From Rhizodiscina lignyota (taxonomy: Eukaryota): a DNA stretch of 64,000 nucleotides. Below, in pieces: positions 1 through 59,795 of the stretch; the stretch's first letter is position 1, and every line of letters starts with the position of its first letter. The stretch covers positions 124,001 through 188,000 of the forward strand of contig ML978140.1 in assembly GCA_010015805.1 (NCBI GenBank), in the 5' to 3' direction. Below the pieces are notes generated by a model, which saw only the letters and a list, made by a program, of their open reading frames with translations, searched no databases and had not been told where the DNA came from. The position numbers and the translations under genes are program-made.

Positions 1-555
1 TGCGTTGTTCGGCGTTTTGCCTTCCGTAGAATTGCAGGCTTCCATTCCTGGTAGAGTCTCACTGAGGACCCGCGGTCAATATATTCAATATATTAGGTTG
101 AATCTTTTAACGATGATCCAGATGCGGATTGAATATAAGCAAACTTCATAAGAGGGCGGAAGGTATTGTTACAGTGTTTGGATATTGGTGGGGGCCCTCG
201 TCAGCTAAATGATACTGGATCGTGCACGGTGCTTCTACTTGGATGGGCCTTCTGCGGCTCGACGTACGCAGACCTCTGGTAAATATATCTTGGCAAGTGT
301 GGCTGGGTGTCTCTGTGAGATTTGGAAGGGAGAGAGGCACATCTGACAGCACCTCGATGCTGCGTTCAGATGGAGTTGATTATTAGCTTATTGAAGATTT
401 TTGGAATTGATTTCATCTGTCATCTGATATTGTAGACCATTATGAGTAGAGACTCTTTTGACCATACCACATCTTATCAGCTACGTCACCTTCGAGCCAC
501 TGAATGGATACTTCAAACTTGACCACTTGCAGTTCACCGATTTTCAGTTCGACAC

Positions 556-1770
556 TCAGGACTTGACGGGTTTGAGCTCGTCGAGATCCTTCGTATCTAG
601 GAGCCGTTTTGCACCACCGAGACTGGCCTTGACCACTTCCCTCATGCGAGTCTTCATTTCCTCCTCGTAAGCCGCCACAGCTTCAATGCCGACACCCTTG
701 TTCTCCAGCTCGCGGCACAAAGTCGCAGCGTCCTGCAGAGCACTTGCCGCTCCCGCAGCACCAGTTGGCGGCATGACATGGGCCGCGTCGCCGATAATGG
801 TGACCTTCGATGCCTTCCAGTCAGGGATGTCGGGATGAGTCGTGAGGACGTGGATGGTCGACGTAAGCGTGGGATCAGCATACTTGAACAGCGAGGTCAA
901 CTTCAACGTCCAGTCTGCCGTAAGCTTCGTCGCCAACCCGAGTGCCTCTTCACCGTGGGAGCGGTGGAAGGAGCCAAGCGGTATGCCATGTTGAGAAAGC
1001 AGATTATGGGGCATCATGAGGACCCAGTAGACATAGTCCACAGGCAGCTCGAACGGTGCGTCAGCGGCTCTGTCTCGATTGAAGTGAATCTTCTCGAGGA
1101 GCAAGTGAAGCGGTGACGGTTGCGATCTGTCTGTTACCAAGCTCATCTTGCGCAAGGCGTCCTCTGAGAATGCCCTGATAAAGTCGTCGGTCATGGGTGT
1201 CTTGCTGTAGATGAGGCAACCTTCAGTGTCTAGCAGCGCGATCTGCGGGAAGACCTGGCTTCTCACTCGAGATCGTGCACCTTCAGCTCCGACGAGGAGA
1301 CTTCCGCGCACCGTCGATCCGTCGGTGAAGTGAGAGACCACGCCATCTGGAGTCACCTCGCTCTTTTGGAACTGCTTGCCCCAGCTCACGCGATTTTGCT
1401 CGAGTCCGGTCAACAGTACGTTTCGCAGAACTGATCGATCGACGGTGTAGGCGTGGCCAGGTGGTCGATGGGCTCCGAAGACCTCTCGAGGTGCAAGTGA
1501 CTCTCCTGTTCCAGGATCAATGACTCCTGGGGCGCCAACCTCCACATCTGCGCAAGTCTGCTCGAAGAGGGTGTACAACTCAGTTGAGAGGCATTGCTTC
1601 AAGGCGTCTGCGCCGTCGGAAGCGAGGCGGACGCGGTAGCCTTGTGGGCGGAACGTCACGTCGGTATCTTTCTCGAAGACTTGGAAAGGGATATTGCGCT
1701 TCTTGAGGCCATTTGCGAGGCAGAGGCCACTGATGCCGGCGCCGATGATGAGGACGGGCAGTTCAGACAT
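556..1770 (-). CDS. FAD-dependent monooxygenase (FAD_binding_3 / aromatic hydroxylase-like)
   Basis: Intronless 404-aa ORF with N-terminal GAGISG Rossmann motif, LVGAEG (DG-motif variant) and IGDAAHVMPP..GA..ALQDA (GD motif). Confidence 0.9.
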   Translation of the reverse strand: MSELPVLIIGAGISGLCLANGLKKRNIPFQVFEKDTDVTFRPQGYRVRLASDGADALKQCLSTELYTLFEQTCADVEVGAPGVIDPGTGESLAPREVFGAHRPPGHAYTVDRSVLRNVLLTGLEQNRVSWGKQFQKSEVTPDGVVSHFTDGSTVRGSLLVGAEGARSRVRSQVFPQIALLDTEGCLIYSKTPMTDDFIRAFSEDALRKMSLVTDRSQPSPLHLLLEKIHFNRDRAADAPFELPVDYVYWVLMMPHNLLSQHGIPLGSFHRSHGEEALGLATKLTADWTLKLTSLFKYADPTLTSTIHVLTTHPDIPDWKASKVTIIGDAAHVMPPTGAAGAASALQDAATLCRELENKGVGIEAVAAYEEEMKTRMREVVKASLGGAKRLLDTKDLDELKPVKS

Positions 1771-53757: not shown

Positions 53758-55378
53758 TTATGCATCCGTCGTCTCACTCGTCCACTGCGGCACCGTCGCC
53801 TTGTCCTGAATCATCCTCTGCACACCATTAGCACCACTCTTACTCTCTTTTCCCTCAGGCCTCTTGAAATGTGGTTTCAGCGGCTCCCAACTCTCCGCAT
53901 TATAGTCCTCTTGCACCTTCTTACACCTCGAGAGCCCCCACTCCGTCACGCCCACCATCAAGCACGACTCGAACATGAACGCCATGCTACCCTCGCCGAC
54001 TTTTTGAGGCTTTAAGTCGGCGTTGGACGCTTTCTCGTGCGTGGTGGCATCTGGACCGTGTGCGCTCATCACGTTGTGCAAGGAGGCGCCGGCGGGTTGG
54101 AACCCACCTCCGGTTTTGGCGTCGTATTGCCCGTGGATGAGGCCCATGAATTCAGACATTGTGTTGCGGTGGTACCAGGGAGGGCGGAAGGTGTCTTCGG
54201 CGACTAACCTGTTTTCGGCGTATTGTATTAGTCGTGTACTTTACGTGTCTTATGAGTTACAAGAGGGGCGCGGGATAGCTGGGAGAGGAAAATGGGAGAG
54301 GCTACGTACCATCGTGGAGGAAAGATGACGAAATCAGCAATAGCAGTCCCCACATGGTCCGATTGAGCAGTCAACACGGTGTATATGCTCGGATCTGGAT
54401 GATCGTAGCTCACGCTGCCGACCGTGTTGAACCGTCCCAGGTCGTACTTGTAGGGATAGTAGTTCCCGTGCCAGGCTACGACATCGAAAGGAGAGTGGTT
54501 CTGTTTCGCCTCAAACAAATGGCCGGCGAATTTCGATAGGAGAGTGTAGCTGTTGGCTGTGTCTTCGACAAAGGAAGCGACAGGTGCCTGGAAGTCACGC
54601 GCGTTGGCTAGACAGTTCGATCCGATGGGGCCGAGCTCAGGGAGGGTGAAGTGGTTCTGGTAGAGCTCGAGGATATACCCGCGTATTGGGCCTTCAGGGA
54701 GGGTGACACGATGTCGGATGCCTCGTGGGATCACACAGATCTCGTTGGGCCGCACGAGCAAGTTTCCCAGCTCGGTCTGGATATCGAGAACTCCGTGCTG
54801 CGGCACGATCAGGAAGTCCCCGTCAGCGGAATAGAATGCCTCCCGCTCAGACATGTCCTTCCCCGCGGCGAAGATGTAAATGCCAATGCCAGATTTCATC
54901 ACTGGCGACCCCGCCCCAGCCACGAGGTGTAAGGAGTGCACCCAGTCGACGGTCTCATCGAGGTCGAACGGGTCCCAGCGCAGCTGGTTCGGGATCTGGT
55001 AGATCTTCTCGAATGGCTTAGACTCTGGATTTGTGTTGTATGTTGCGGACTCTTTGGTGGCGAAGGGAGCGTGTGCGGACGCGGGCAGGATACGGTACAG
55101 CCAGGTTTGCTGGTTCTCGTGCCGGGGCGCGGTGAAGGCAGTGCCGGAGAGCTTCTCGGCGTACAGGCCTAGAGGGGGTTTCTGGGGTGAGTTGGCACCG
55201 ATGGGAAGGGCGCCTTGGATGGCTTCGGTTCTGGGGAAGACGGTTAGTGACGAAATTGAAAGAGAGCAAGTCGGGCAATTGAGAGTATAGGAGAGTCAAT
55301 TGAGACTCACTCATGGTAGCAATTGAATCCATTCTGATACCGATATTTTTCGGGGACCTTGAAATCTGTGGAAGGCAT
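53758..55378 (-). CDS. hmgA: Homogentisate 1,2-dioxygenase
   Basis: [113 protein letters not shown]. Two introns. Confidence 0.96.
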
Positions 55379-55562
55379 CGTGCTCGTCGCAGTAGTCCGG
55401 GTTGAAGAATTCGGTCAGGTTACGCTCCGTCAGCGGTATGACGGATTTGGGGGGCTTTTTCTCCTTCTTGAAGATGTGTGTGAGTTTCTTCCAGCGGAGG
55501 TGCTGTTGCTCTGGAACGGGCTTGTTCGGGTCCATATACTGGACTGATGGCGAGCCCGACAT
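55311..55562 (-). CDS. 83-codon upstream ORF overlapping the hmgA start out of frame
   Basis: CCGCC-ATG context, G/C-ending codon bias, covers all 68 coding nt of hmgA exon 1, TGA immediately before the splice donor. Confidence 0.55.
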   Translation of the reverse strand: MSGSPSVQYMDPNKPVPEQQHLRWKKLTHIFKKEKKPPKSVIPLTERNLTEFFNPDYCDEHDAFHRFQGPRKISVSEWIQLLP

Positions 55563-55926
55563 GGCGGATAGTCACGGCGGTGCTTGCTTTCGGAAATGGT
55601 GGTGGTGCTCTGTTGGAGAAGATGATGCGTGACCAGCGGGCGGAGGAGGCGCGGAATTAATTCCTCGCTCAGTTCCTATTGGGGCCTCAGATGGATTGGA
55701 GAGGCCTCCGTGGGTGCTGCTGAGGTCAGGTACGGGGTCCCCACACTAATGCCGGCTTTGTGCGGTATAGCTAGGTGCTGCGCGGTATACGTTAGCACAC
55801 CTCTCTTTTGCACTGCGATGAGAGCTTGACGATGCTCGGTGATAGACGCTGAGGATCATATAAGGGCTATAGTTCAGGCGATTGAGCAGTTTGGAGGAGC
55901 AGAGAAACGGCAACAAGACTGCAATC

Positions 55927-57462
55927 ATGGCTCCTCTTCGGTCCTGGTTTCCTATCCCACCGGCGTCTCATTTCTCACTGGCAAATATACCCTTTGGCAT
56001 GTGCGTTCGTTGCTGTCCCCTTCAGTCCATCTAATTGATTGATATAAGTGAGCTGACTCTCATTGGAAACTAGAATAAGCACGACGGCCAATCCCAAACC
56101 ACGACTAGGCGTCCCAATTGGCGACCATGTCCTCGATCTCGCCCTGTTTACCGCAAACAACGGTTTCGCGCGCCAATCAACCATCCAGCCACACCAGCAC
56201 GTCTTCAGCGAGCTGACATTGAACTCCTTTGCGGCATTGGGTCGGCCAGTGCATAGTGTGGTGAGGAAGTACATACAGGACGTCTTTTTGGAGAACACGT
56301 CGTACCCAGAGATTTTGAAAGATAATGCAGCGTTGCAGAAAGAGGCGCTGGTCCCGCTGAAGGAAGTGACGAACCATCTGCCTCTTGAGATTGGAGACTA
56401 TACGGATTTCTTCGTAGGAAGGAACCATGCGTACAACTGCGGTATCCTCTTTCGCGGACCAGAGAATCCAATCGCACCGAACTATGATCATCTGCCTGTT
56501 GGCTACCATGGACGAGCGTCGTCTGTCGTGGTGTCCGGAACGCCGATCAGGCGGCCGTTTGGGCAGATTGAGGCGGAAAAGAACAACCCAATTCAGTCGC
56601 CGTGCTTAAGGCTAGATTTCGAGATGGAGATGGGCGCATTCGTGTGCAAGGCAAACAAGATGGGCGAGCCGATCCTGATTGATGAAGCTGAGGACGCCAT
56701 CTTCGGTTTGGTGATGATGAACGATTGGTCTGCGAGAGATATTCAGTGCATCTAGCCACTCTCACATTTTGATTGGGATCAACATTGCTGACATTGAGTA
56801 GATTCTGGGAATCTACGCCTCTTGGCCCGTTCAATTCGAAGAACTTTGGCACCAGCGTCAGCCCATGGGTCGTGCTGATCGATGCACTCGAGCCATTTGC
56901 AGCGAAAGGCTTGCCGAATGCACAGCAGACGCTGCCGTACATGCAGCAGAAGAACGAGAAGAATCAGTACGATATCAAGCTCAAAGTCGACCTCACCTGT
57001 AAGCTACTATATGAAGTCAAACTTAAACCCCTCAGCATGGCTAACTGTTAGCAGCACAATCAGGACAAACAGCAACAGTCTGCAAAGTATCCGCGACAGA
57101 ACTACTGTTCTCATTCCCACAAATGGTCGCCCATCACACAATAGGTAAGAATAGAGGTAGTCCCCAGAATTATTCATCGGGCCGAAGATCTGACTACTGA
57201 ACCAACAGGCGGCTGCCCGATGAGAGTAGGAGACCTGCTCGGCTCCGGCACGATATCAGGCAACGAGCCGGGGTCCTGCGGCTGCTTCCTCGAGTCTACG
57301 CAGGGCGGAAAGGTCGGTATTACGCTGAGCGGCGGCGAGAAGAGGATGTTCCTGGAGGACGGCGACACTGTTACGTTTTCTGGGGTGTGCGGAACTGAGG
57401 ATGGTGGGTTGGTGGGCTTCGGTGAATGCTCGGGAACGATCTTGCCAGCATTGAAGTTGTAA
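55927..57462 (+). CDS. fahA: Fumarylacetoacetase, multi-exon
   Basis: HFSLANIPFG, IGDYTDFF, HLPVGYHGRASSVVVSGTPIRRP, LDFEMEMG, NDWSARDIQ, PLGPFNSKNF, GDLLGSGTISG, GFGECSG. Confidence 0.95.
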
Positions 57463-58086: not shown

Positions 58087-59795
58087 ATGACGCTCAACCC
58101 CAATGTCATTGCGATTGCGGTGGTGTCGTTCATTTACTTCACCATTAAGTACTTCAATCGCACGGACACGCCCAAGGTCAAGGGAATACCAGAGATTCCT
58201 GGATGGCCCCTCTTTGGCAGCTTGATAGAGCTGGGTGCCAACCATGCAAAAGTTGCGCAGAACTGGGCGAAGAAATATGGTCCCGTCTTTCAAGTTCGCA
58301 TGGGAAATAAGGTACGACATTGCATTTCTCATTTGTATAGGAATTAGTCAGTTGCTCACCTGTGCCATTTAGAGGATCATATGGGCAAATTCATTCGACT
58401 CCGTAAAGCAACTCTGGATTAACAACCAATCTGCCCTCATCTCCAGGCCCACTCTGCACACCTTCCACACCGTTGTGTCTTCCTCACAAGGCTTCACAAT
58501 CGGTACCTCTCCGTGGGACGACTCCTGTAAACAGCGCCGTAAGGCCGCCGCCACGGCCCTCAACAGACCCGCAGTGCAAACGTACATGCCAATCATCGAC
58601 CTCGAAAGTACTGCTAGCATCAGGGAGATGTACGAGGATGGTAAGAAGGGCACAATCGACATCAACCCCATCCCGTACTGGCAGCGCTTCGCTCTAAACA
58701 CGAGCCTAACGTTAAACTACGGCATTCGCATCTCAGGCAACATCGACGATGAGTTGCTGCGAGAGATTGTCCATGTCGAGCGCGAGGTCTCGAATTTTCG
58801 CTCAACAAGCAACAATTGGCAGGACTATATCCCGCTGCTGAGACTGCTCCCGAGTAGTTCGACGAAGGCGCAAGAGTATCGCGTCAGAAGGGATGTGTAT
58901 ATGGATAAATTGCTGGGAATGCTGAAAGAAAAGATTTCGAGCGGCACGGACAAGCCATGCATTACGGGGAATATCTTGAAAGATCCGGAGGCCAAGCTTA
59001 ATGACGCAGAAATCAAGAGTATCTGCTTAACAATGGTATCTGCGGGAATTGATACGGTGCCGGGCAATTTGCTCATGGGGATTGCATATCTGGCGAGTGA
59101 GCATGGCAAGGCTATCCAGGCAAAAGCGTATGAGGAGATTATGAAGGTGTATCCTGATGGGGATGCATGGGTGAAGTGTCTGGTTGAGGAAAAGGTGCCA
59201 TATATCAGCGCGCTCGTGAAGGAGGTGCTGAGGTTCTGGACTGTCATTCCAATTTGGTAAGAATCCCCAGCTCTATCCTTGCACTCCCTCTGCATCGTTG
59301 ATGCAGATACTGACAGGGTGTAACAGCCTCCCCCGCCGCTCCATCAAAGACATTACTTACAACGGCGCCACCATCCCCGCCGGCACAACTTTCTACATGA
59401 ACGCTTACGCCGCCGACTACGACCCTACGCACTTCACCAACCCTGCTGCATTCAATCCTGACCGCTACCTCAAGAACTCGTCAGATACCACCGAACTCTC
59501 TGAAGCAGATGGCACTCCACACTACGGCTACGGCGCCGGCAGTCGCATGTGCGCCGGCTCGCATCTTGCGAATCGCGAACTGTATACAGCATTTCTGAGG
59601 ATGATCCTGGTTTTTGAAATCTTGCAGCCACAGCAGGAGGCGGATCGCCCAATCCTGGATGCGCTGGAAGCAAACGCTATTCCGACGAGTTTGACGCTCG
59701 AGCCGAAGCCCTTCAAGTGTCGGTTTAGGGTGCGGGATCGAGAGATGTTGGAGAGGTGGGTGGAGGAGAGTGAGGAGCGGACGAAGGATCTTTAA
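58087..59795 (+). CDS. phacA: Cytochrome P450 CYP504A, phenylacetate 2-hydroxylase-like, three exons
   Basis: SSSQGFTIGTSPWDDSCKQRRKAAATALNRPA signature, AGIDT I-helix, EVLR, YGYGAGSRMCAG heme motif. Adjacent to fahA and hmgA. Confidence 0.88.

Follow-up and report, generated by a model that had tools for sequence, protein, structure and literature searches.

The question addressed here is whether a long open reading frame (ORF) that crosses the start codon of a fungal catabolic gene is a chance feature of its leader or a coding unit in its own right and, in the latter case, what its role could be. The ORF lies in a 64,000-nucleotide stretch of the Rhizodiscina lignyota genome (assembly GCA_010015805.1, contig ML978140.1, positions 124,001 to 188,000; hereafter the window, whose coordinates are used throughout), where it begins upstream of hmgA and ends inside it. 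The product of hmgA, homogentisate 1,2-dioxygenase (HmgA), occupies the point at which complete degradation of Tyr/Phe and accumulation of homogentisate diverge, and accumulated homogentisate leads to pyomelanin, a stress-protective pigment of black fungi and Aspergillus. In the available part of one report, control of the pathway is described as transcriptional, through HmgR (PMC3203155). From comparison with its relatives, the upstream ORF (uORF) is very likely a real, translated and conserved reading frame, and it probably represents an undescribed translational control layer or a hidden companion microprotein for this enzyme of Tyr/Phe breakdown.

The uORF consists of 83 codons and a TGA (55311..55562, minus strand) and is the founding member here of an unnamed peptide family. 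Its start codon (uATG; 55560..55562, minus strand) has the context ccgccATGtc, with G at position -3. The hmgA ATG at 55378 is found 184 nt 3' of the uATG, and because 184 mod 3 = 1, hmgA is in the +1 frame relative to the uORF. The hmgA start codon (55376..55378, minus strand) is contained in uORF codons 62-63 (GAT GCC), so that all of hmgA coding exon 1 (22 codons plus 2 nt; 55311..55378, minus strand) coincides with uORF codons 62-83 and the stop. The stop codon itself (55311..55313, minus strand) follows CCA (Pro), forms the last 3 nt of exon 1 and is directly followed by the GTGAGT donor at 55310. Upstream of its own ATG, the hmgA frame extends for just 12 codons, up to a TGA at 55417. 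In the 61 non-overlapping codons, G+C content at third positions (GC3) was 0.79 in the uORF frame versus 0.53 and 0.33 in the other two, and GC3 of hmgA exon 2 was 0.71 for comparison. The start, the frame, the overlap, the terminal TGA, the short upstream extension of the hmgA frame and the G/C-ending codons had all been described in the original prediction, and all of its factual statements are correct. A single open frame of 83 codons is weak evidence by itself, with an estimated chance of about 0.02 per frame, (61/64)^83. What sets the uORF apart from a chance ORF is its conservation across relatives.

Conservation and linkage to hmgA

The original prediction proposed a conserved peptide, and relatives were indeed found by three routes. 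A word-seeded protein search with the 83-aa peptide gave 19 candidates, all of which matched (79-104 aa, E 1e-17 to 8e-34, 55-80% identity). A profile search of 1.84 billion cluster representatives yielded 47 matches at E <= 1e-3, 24 of them at E <= 1e-10; two matches (786 and 638 aa, internally repetitive) were read as repeat-protein false positives. The two protein searches together give a family of about 60 relatives of 50-180 aa. Residue counts below refer to up to 53 aligned members and stop-site counts to 63 family members. In addition, metagenome contigs were scanned with two patterns drawn from the core and tail of the peptide, and 11 of the 115 pattern matches were found to encode a relative. 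Together with the window, these 11 loci make up a set of 12 DNA sequences, of which 10 are complete at the 5' side. Two pairs are near-duplicates (L002/L003, 99.3% identical, and L006/L008, 99.7%), which leaves 8 non-redundant complete sequences and 28 pairs for comparison.

The predicted linkage to hmgA was observed in every DNA sequence. In 12 of 12 the tail of the uORF is hmgA exon 1, joined in the same frame relation, and the end CCA TGA is identical throughout. In 11 of the 12 sequences exon 1 ends at a GT donor, and exon 2 begins after an intron of 54-80 nt; in the remaining one, L010, exon 2 directly adjoins. The distance from the uATG to the hmgA ATG takes six values (184, 199, 214, 217, 226 and 232 nt), all of them 1 mod 3. 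The uORF thus starts 184-232 nt upstream and hmgA lies in its +1 frame in 10 of 10 complete loci, and the stop lies 65 nt past the hmgA ATG in 12 of 12. Both start codons also keep their surroundings, with a purine at -3 of the uATG and the fixed context cacgATGc at the hmgA start in all 10 complete loci. Since the loci were retrieved by core and tail alone, the open frame and the ATG 5' of the core are an independent observation.

Selection in the uORF frame

Purifying selection on the 61 non-overlapping codons, which had been put forward as a check, was evident in the uORF frame. The clearest signal came from the core block LTERNLTEFFNPDYCDEH (residues 44-61; 55380..55433, minus strand), which lies wholly upstream of the hmgA ATG. 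Uncorrected proportions of nonsynonymous (pN) and synonymous (pS) differences are reported because synonymous sites were saturated and Nei-Gojobori (NG86) distances could not be computed for most pairs. Over the 18 ungapped core codons and 28 pairs, pS was 0.863 and pN 0.110, so that pN/pS was 0.13 in the uORF frame, whereas the remaining sense frames had ratios of 2.17 and 1.47. Of the three sense frames, only that of the uORF had pN below pS, and did so in all 28 pairs. The N-terminal part of the peptide had a pN/pS of 0.49 in the uORF frame versus 1.09 and 1.42 in the other sense frames.

These data also bear on the possibility that the region is not translated at all and is a promoter or 5'-untranslated nucleic-acid element, an antisense gene or a product of chance. 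The region does lie in a compact bidirectional promoter between hmgA and the divergent gene fahA, and the antisense frame that shares its wobble positions with the uORF also has a low ratio of 0.20. However, variation falls on the third positions of one frame and includes Arg swaps of the CGN/AGR type (CGT/AGA/CGC/AGG in the core) and Leu swaps of the CTN/TTG type (CTG/CTT/TTG). All indels are multiples of 3. The uORF frame alone was stop-free in 8 of 8 loci, whereas each of the five other frames contained stops in at least 6 of 8. Finally, the peptide motifs can still be recognized at 35-55% identity, a range in which similarity of the DNA has been lost. An untranslated element is for these reasons highly improbable. 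Antisense coding is ruled out by stops, of which the wobble-sharing antisense frame has 7 in the core across the 8 sequences. In the window, a 64-aa ORF in this same antisense frame (55438-55632, plus strand) overlies the 5' portion of the uORF; as the antisense frames carry stops in relatives, it is regarded as a by-product of the uORF codon pattern.

Dual coding in hmgA exon 1

Selection within the overlap was assessed by comparing exon 1 with exon 2 in seven sequences with sufficient coverage of exon 2; L004, whose contig ends 8 codons into exon 2, was left out for that reason. In the hmgA frame, pS was 0.396 in exon 1 versus 0.757 in exon 2 (120 codons), and the lowest exon 2 value among 99 sliding windows of 22 codons was 0.695. 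At degenerate codons for invariant residues, synonymous variation was seen at 2 of 9 in exon 1 and 76 of 81 in exon 2 (Fisher p = 3.4e-6). Several hmgA codons are fixed, namely AAT of Asn16 and TAT of Tyr12 (7 of 7 each) and CAT of His22 (12 of 12). The fixed exon 1 codons are often the rarer ones, with shares within their codon pairs in exon 2 of 0.28 for AAT, 0.38 for CAT and 0.26 for TAT. The AAT of Asn16 yields Trp78 of the peptide, and the CAT of His22 yields the uORF stop.

For the overlap, the hmgA and uORF frames had pN/pS values of 0.43 and 0.51, respectively, and the third frame one of 0.95, so that purifying selection is also seen inside hmgA. Among L001-L009, the first 22 residues of HmgA evolve faster at the protein level (pN 0.184 versus 0.088 in exon 2) and their synonymous sites evolve more slowly. 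A fast protein combined with slow synonymous sites is the signature expected of a compromise between two overlapping frames. Because selection on the peptide is seen both upstream of the hmgA AUG and in the overlap, exon 1 is dual-coding, with both frames under constraint.

The peptide family

The alignment of family members shows three shared modules. The N-terminal motif Y-x-D-P-N-K-x-x-P-E (residues 9-18; 55509..55538, minus strand) is also present in divergent members. As the module Y-x-D-P-x-x-x-x-P-E it retains Tyr9 in 33 of 44 aligned sequences, Asp11 in 42 of 44, Pro12 in 43 of 43 and Pro17 in 33 of 40. The second module is a K/R-rich stretch of variable length (residues 23-39; 55446..55496, minus strand), part of which falls in a predicted helix (residues 17-30) and in which all indels are multiples of 3. 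The core module, L-T-E-R-N-L-x-E-F-x-N-P-x-Y, has Thr45 and Asn48 in 53 of 53 members each and Leu44 in 52 of 53. C-terminal of the core, an acidic stretch leads into the tail R-K-x-S-x-x-E-W-x-x-L-P, where Trp78 is invariant (53 of 53). The Phe-Phe and Tyr just before the hmgA ATG had raised the idea of a response to aromatic amino acids. These residues (Phe52 in 35 of 53, Phe53 in 38 of 53, Tyr57 in 40 of 50) are less conserved than Thr45, Asn48 and Trp78, and sensing through their codons is without specific support.

No Pfam family was found for the window peptide or for the 53 members (E <= 0.1), and no sequence in the PDB matched the peptide at E <= 1. A protein atlas gave no informative match, just unnamed clusters with low feature sharing. 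The AlphaFold2 (AF2) model of the peptide had a predicted local distance difference test score (pLDDT) of 75 and a predicted template modeling score (pTM) of 0.26, with three short helices (17-30, 46-52 and 75-80) and no globular fold; pLDDT reached 91-93 at the C-terminal end. A non-globular model of three helices fits a nascent-chain effector and a motif-bearing microprotein alike. A complex prediction of the window peptide with HmgA, taken from the L010 ORF, gave scores of 0.00 and 0.00, for a cross-species pair in which the supplied alignments went unused.

One explanation of the conserved peptide is a trans-acting microprotein. The uORF would then be a small gene co-transcribed with hmgA, and its product of about 60-100 aa would be released and act elsewhere, e.g. 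on the Tyr/Phe pathway, its regulator or pyomelanin formation, with the overlap merely setting the ratio of the two products. Three separate conserved modules spread over the whole peptide, including the N-terminal one, argue for this, as do the selection that extends to the C-terminal tail within the overlap, the gene-like codon usage (GC3 0.79) and the locally confident short helices, which are as expected of binding motifs. On the other side, the model is not globular and neither a family nor a structure was matched. Moreover, a co-expressed gene has no need to overlap the start codon of the enzyme, yet the overlap is kept in 12 of 12 sequences. We consider a released microprotein a possible, if somewhat unlikely, main role.

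The C-terminal end of the peptide is usually set by the exon-end stop: 54 of 63 family proteins end right after the exon-end Pro. The exceptions include a divergent subgroup (P0060, P0061, P0062, P0064 and P0065) with the shorter core P-L-T-E-R-N-I-E and no exon-end stop. In this subgroup the ORF continues past the final Pro (...L-L-P-R-V...), which implies His CAC instead of CAT. In these species the uORF would thus run into hmgA exon 2 after splicing.

The stop and its surroundings were also considered as a site of fusion between the two frames. Joining the uORF to HmgA would give an isoform with a different N-terminus and could proceed by a +1 frameshift (antizyme-like at CCA-UGA, or else at CCC-CGA) or through a short intron that corrects the frame. 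In the spliced sequence, a +1 step at CCA UGA A does lead into the hmgA frame; in the window, a shift at CCC CGA or removal of a possible 58-nt intron (GTAACC...CACAG) would likewise restore the frame, and two automatic gene models from Coniosporium fuse both ORFs. Each route was rejected. A shift at CCA-UGA would delete the conserved HmgA N-terminus Y-x-Y-x-N-G-F-x-x-Y-H, and 9 of 63 members have no stop there. The CCC-CGA site is present in 5 of 12 DNA sequences, the rest having CCC AGA, CAA AGA, GGA GGA or TCC AGA. The 58-nt intron has its GT in the window only (1 of the 11 sequences that span the site), and conservation of the peptide continues through it uninterrupted. Searches of longer proteins for natural uORF-HmgA fusions returned only the upstream-extended ORF calls P0020 and P0021 and the two Coniosporium models. 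The latter, P0022 (Coniosporium apollinis) and P0071 (C. tulheliwenetii), are NCBI models that start HmgA at the uATG and reach the HmgA body through two different invented introns. Both remove the conserved Y-x-Y-x-N-G-F-x-x-Y-H-E and are therefore likely mis-annotations caused by the uORF. As hmgA keeps its own ATG in a fixed context in 10 of 10 loci together with a conserved N-terminus, and no shift-prone site is conserved, the +1 shift offered in the original prediction is without support, and a fused isoform is very improbable.

Effect of the uORF on HmgA synthesis

With moderate confidence, we favor a translational cis gate on hmgA as the main role of the uORF. In the scanning model, and on a shared mRNA, a ribosome starting at the upstream AUG (uAUG) would read across the hmgA AUG. 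It would terminate 65 nt beyond that AUG after about 83-100 codons, with no reinitiation upstream. Because uORF translation ends past the hmgA AUG, ribosomes engaged on the uORF would be unable to make HmgA; the only sources of the enzyme would be leaky scanning past the uAUG and a shorter transcript whose 5' end lies beyond it. In this way the uORF would set, and may regulate, the yield of HmgA per transcript. Such gating would follow from the geometry, provided that both ORFs are on one mRNA. That the peptide is kept along its whole length and usually ends in Pro-UGA suggests that the peptide itself matters. As a nascent chain it could slow elongation or termination and so tune the block, in the manner of the arginine attenuator peptide (AAP), or it could act as a released microprotein.

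No RNA run containing the window locus was found; the one sequencing run that matched, X1, contained all sampled words, intron and intergenic ones included, and was read as DNA. Two sequences from the searches carry hints about RNA. The protein P0067 (100 aa) is identical to P0010 plus 7 residues from an in-frame upstream ATG and covers the whole uORF to the end of hmgA exon 1. Its source label is 'merc', and we assume that this label denotes the MERC catalogue, which, from the available part of its description, is a protein-level assembly catalogue from 775 marine eukaryotic metatranscriptomes (10.1101/386110). If so, RNA reads span the whole uORF in one organism. The second sequence, L010, is a contig of 1682 nt with an intronless full-length hmgA ORF (56..1447, 463 aa). 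Possible origins of L010 are a transcript initiated 3' of the uATG, a truncated assembly and the DNA of a species that has neither intron.

These sequences bear on a variant of the cis gate that differs in the escape route for HmgA, a two-promoter switch. A long transcript bearing the uORF would be poor for HmgA, and a short induced transcript starting inside the uORF would make the enzyme. The brlA alpha/beta arrangement and the long undecoded transcript isoforms of yeast offer comparisons. The switch would be consistent with L010, which is intronless, of mRNA size and begins inside the uORF core, and with P0067, which implies RNA spanning the uATG in another organism. HmgA is a strongly induced enzyme, and the strong context of the uATG in 10 of 10 loci would make leaky scanning inefficient for it. 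However, just 280-398 nt separate the uATG from the fahA ATG. On balance a two-promoter switch appears unlikely. The cis gate, the microprotein and the two-promoter switch are not mutually exclusive, and the cis gate is ranked first.

Several observations weigh against the favored reading. The N-terminal motif lies 65-75 residues from the stop and would be outside the ribosomal tunnel at a late arrest, which favors a released protein over a pure arrest peptide. Not all members end in Pro-UGA, since 9 of 63 have no exon-end stop, and in 8 of 53 no pair of residues at the homologous column would accommodate a +1-frame ATG. P0067, the sole RNA hint, could be a product of DNA carry-over or chimeric reads, and L010, whose first base lies within the uORF core at 55 nt from the hmgA ATG, would, if a transcript, fit a start site 3' of the uATG. 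With regard to the selection statistics, the protein-guided alignment favors the uORF frame in gapped regions, with the ungapped core and the overlap free of this bias, and the statistics are pairwise, from pairs that are not phylogenetically independent.

A more specific form of the cis gate is an arrest peptide that senses a metabolite (homogentisate, Tyr, Phe or phenylacetate), through the nascent chain or an emerged N-terminal module, and stalls ribosomes on the hmgA AUG or shortly beyond it, in most cases at Pro-UGA. We regard this form as doubtful. If true, the arrest peptide would act as a translational switch for HmgA synthesis and thereby shift homogentisate between breakdown and pyomelanin formation. 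It would then be, to our knowledge, the first conserved-peptide uORF described for a fungal catabolic enzyme, and dual-coded with the enzyme's own N-terminus.

The conserved uORF across the hmgA start adds unannotated coding sequence and most likely a point at which translation is controlled. It is either overlooked by gene predictors or wrongly fused to HmgA, the latter being the case in both Coniosporium models. The uATG is not part of the HmgA coding sequence, so a mutation there would leave the enzyme intact, and the question is directly testable. The original prediction knew of no description of this element; in the literature searched, which did not cover supplements, no description in print of a fungal hmgA uORF was found.

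The hmgA gene and its surroundings

The main ORF was assigned to homogentisate 1,2-dioxygenase from its Pfam domains HgmA_N and HgmA_C, with E-values of 7.8e-72 (HgmA_N), 2.7e-21 and 3.3e-37. Its exon 2 is 84% identical to the annotated HmgA of the Dothideomycete Coniosporium apollinis. The gene has three coding exons (55378..55311, 55230..54310 and 54208..53758), all on the minus strand. Intron 1 (55231..55310, minus strand; 80 nt, GTGAGT...CCCAG) separates exon 1 from exon 2 (54310..55230, minus strand). Intron 2 (54209..54309, minus strand; GTACGT...AACAG), across whose junction the intronless L010 ORF is continuous, precedes exon 3, which runs to the TAA stop (53758..54208, minus strand).

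Divergent from hmgA lies fahA, encoding fumarylacetoacetase (55928..57462, plus strand; Pfam FAA_hydrolase_N and FAA_hydrolase), with its ATG at 55928 and 365 nt between it and the uATG in the window. This divergent arrangement of fahA is retained in 5 of 10 loci. Just past fahA, a cytochrome P450 gene was found as two ORF pieces (58373-59792, plus strand; Pfam p450), which may be part of the same aromatic catabolic neighborhood. The neighbors on the opposite side (Arf, Mob1, Leo1, EF-1 beta and MFS) are unrelated housekeeping genes.

On the hmgA strand, the bidirectional spacer between hmgA and fahA (55563-55927) contains one ATG, located 297 nt 5' of the uATG. A leader free of ATGs was considered as a general feature and rejected, as it is true of the window only; other loci carry ATGs 12-86 nt upstream of the uATG. 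An upstream ATG at -16 is common to L001, L005, L006 and L008, and L007 has an in-frame ATG at -12. No conserved short uORF preceding the uORF was found among the loci compared.

Comparison with known systems

The AAP is encoded by a uORF of about 24 residues in Neurospora arg-2 and yeast CPA1, wholly upstream of the main AUG of a biosynthetic gene. The hmgA uORF resembles it as a fungal conserved-peptide uORF on an mRNA of amino-acid metabolism, likely acting as a nascent peptide in cis. It differs in length (60-100+ residues) and in its three modules, it overlaps the main AUG and exon 1 out of frame, it belongs to a catabolic gene, and its sequence is not similar. Pfam includes a model for the arg-2/CPA1 leader peptide, but neither the window peptide nor the 53 members matched it at E <= 0.1, which places them outside the AAP family.

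Closer in geometry are the start-overlapping inhibitory uORFs, such as uORF2 of ATF4 and the long uORF of some fungal cpc-1 mRNAs, which stop past the main AUG and out of frame. In that type, and as predicted here, translation of the uORF and initiation at the main ORF exclude each other. For cpc-1, synonymous change is reported to be more frequent in the frame of the main ORF than in that of uORF2 (PMC5487733). In the ATF4/cpc-1 type the peptide is not the feature that is conserved and a short upstream uORF gives a regulated bypass, whereas the hmgA peptide is conserved and has no such short uORF.

Most conserved-peptide uORFs (CPuORFs) of plants do not overlap the main ORF. They were recognized, in the parts of the two sources available, by the features found here, peptide conservation across taxa and an excess of synonymous change (PMC2075485, PMC7106846). 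They belong to another kingdom and have no homology to the hmgA peptide. Human alt-RPL36, as far as the available text describes it, is also similar in that an ORF starting upstream overlaps the canonical coding sequence out of frame and encodes a separate small protein, with both frames constrained (PMC7820019). The hmgA uORF differs in that its product is predicted, it belongs to a fungal catabolic gene, and the overlap is 22 codons with most of the peptide encoded upstream.

In the antizyme +1 frameshift, a short ORF1 ends in UGA and the downstream ORF is in the +1 frame. The uORF-hmgA pair shares the UGA end and the +1 relation. It lacks the features of an antizyme-type frameshift in that hmgA has retained an AUG and an N-terminus of its own, part of the family lacks the stop and no shift site is conserved. 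The peptide family offers a new and long example for the study of nascent peptides or overlapping-uORF microproteins in fungi. Judged by the sequence-level features that mark each class, the hmgA uORF behaves both as a conserved-peptide uORF and as a start-overlapping uORF.

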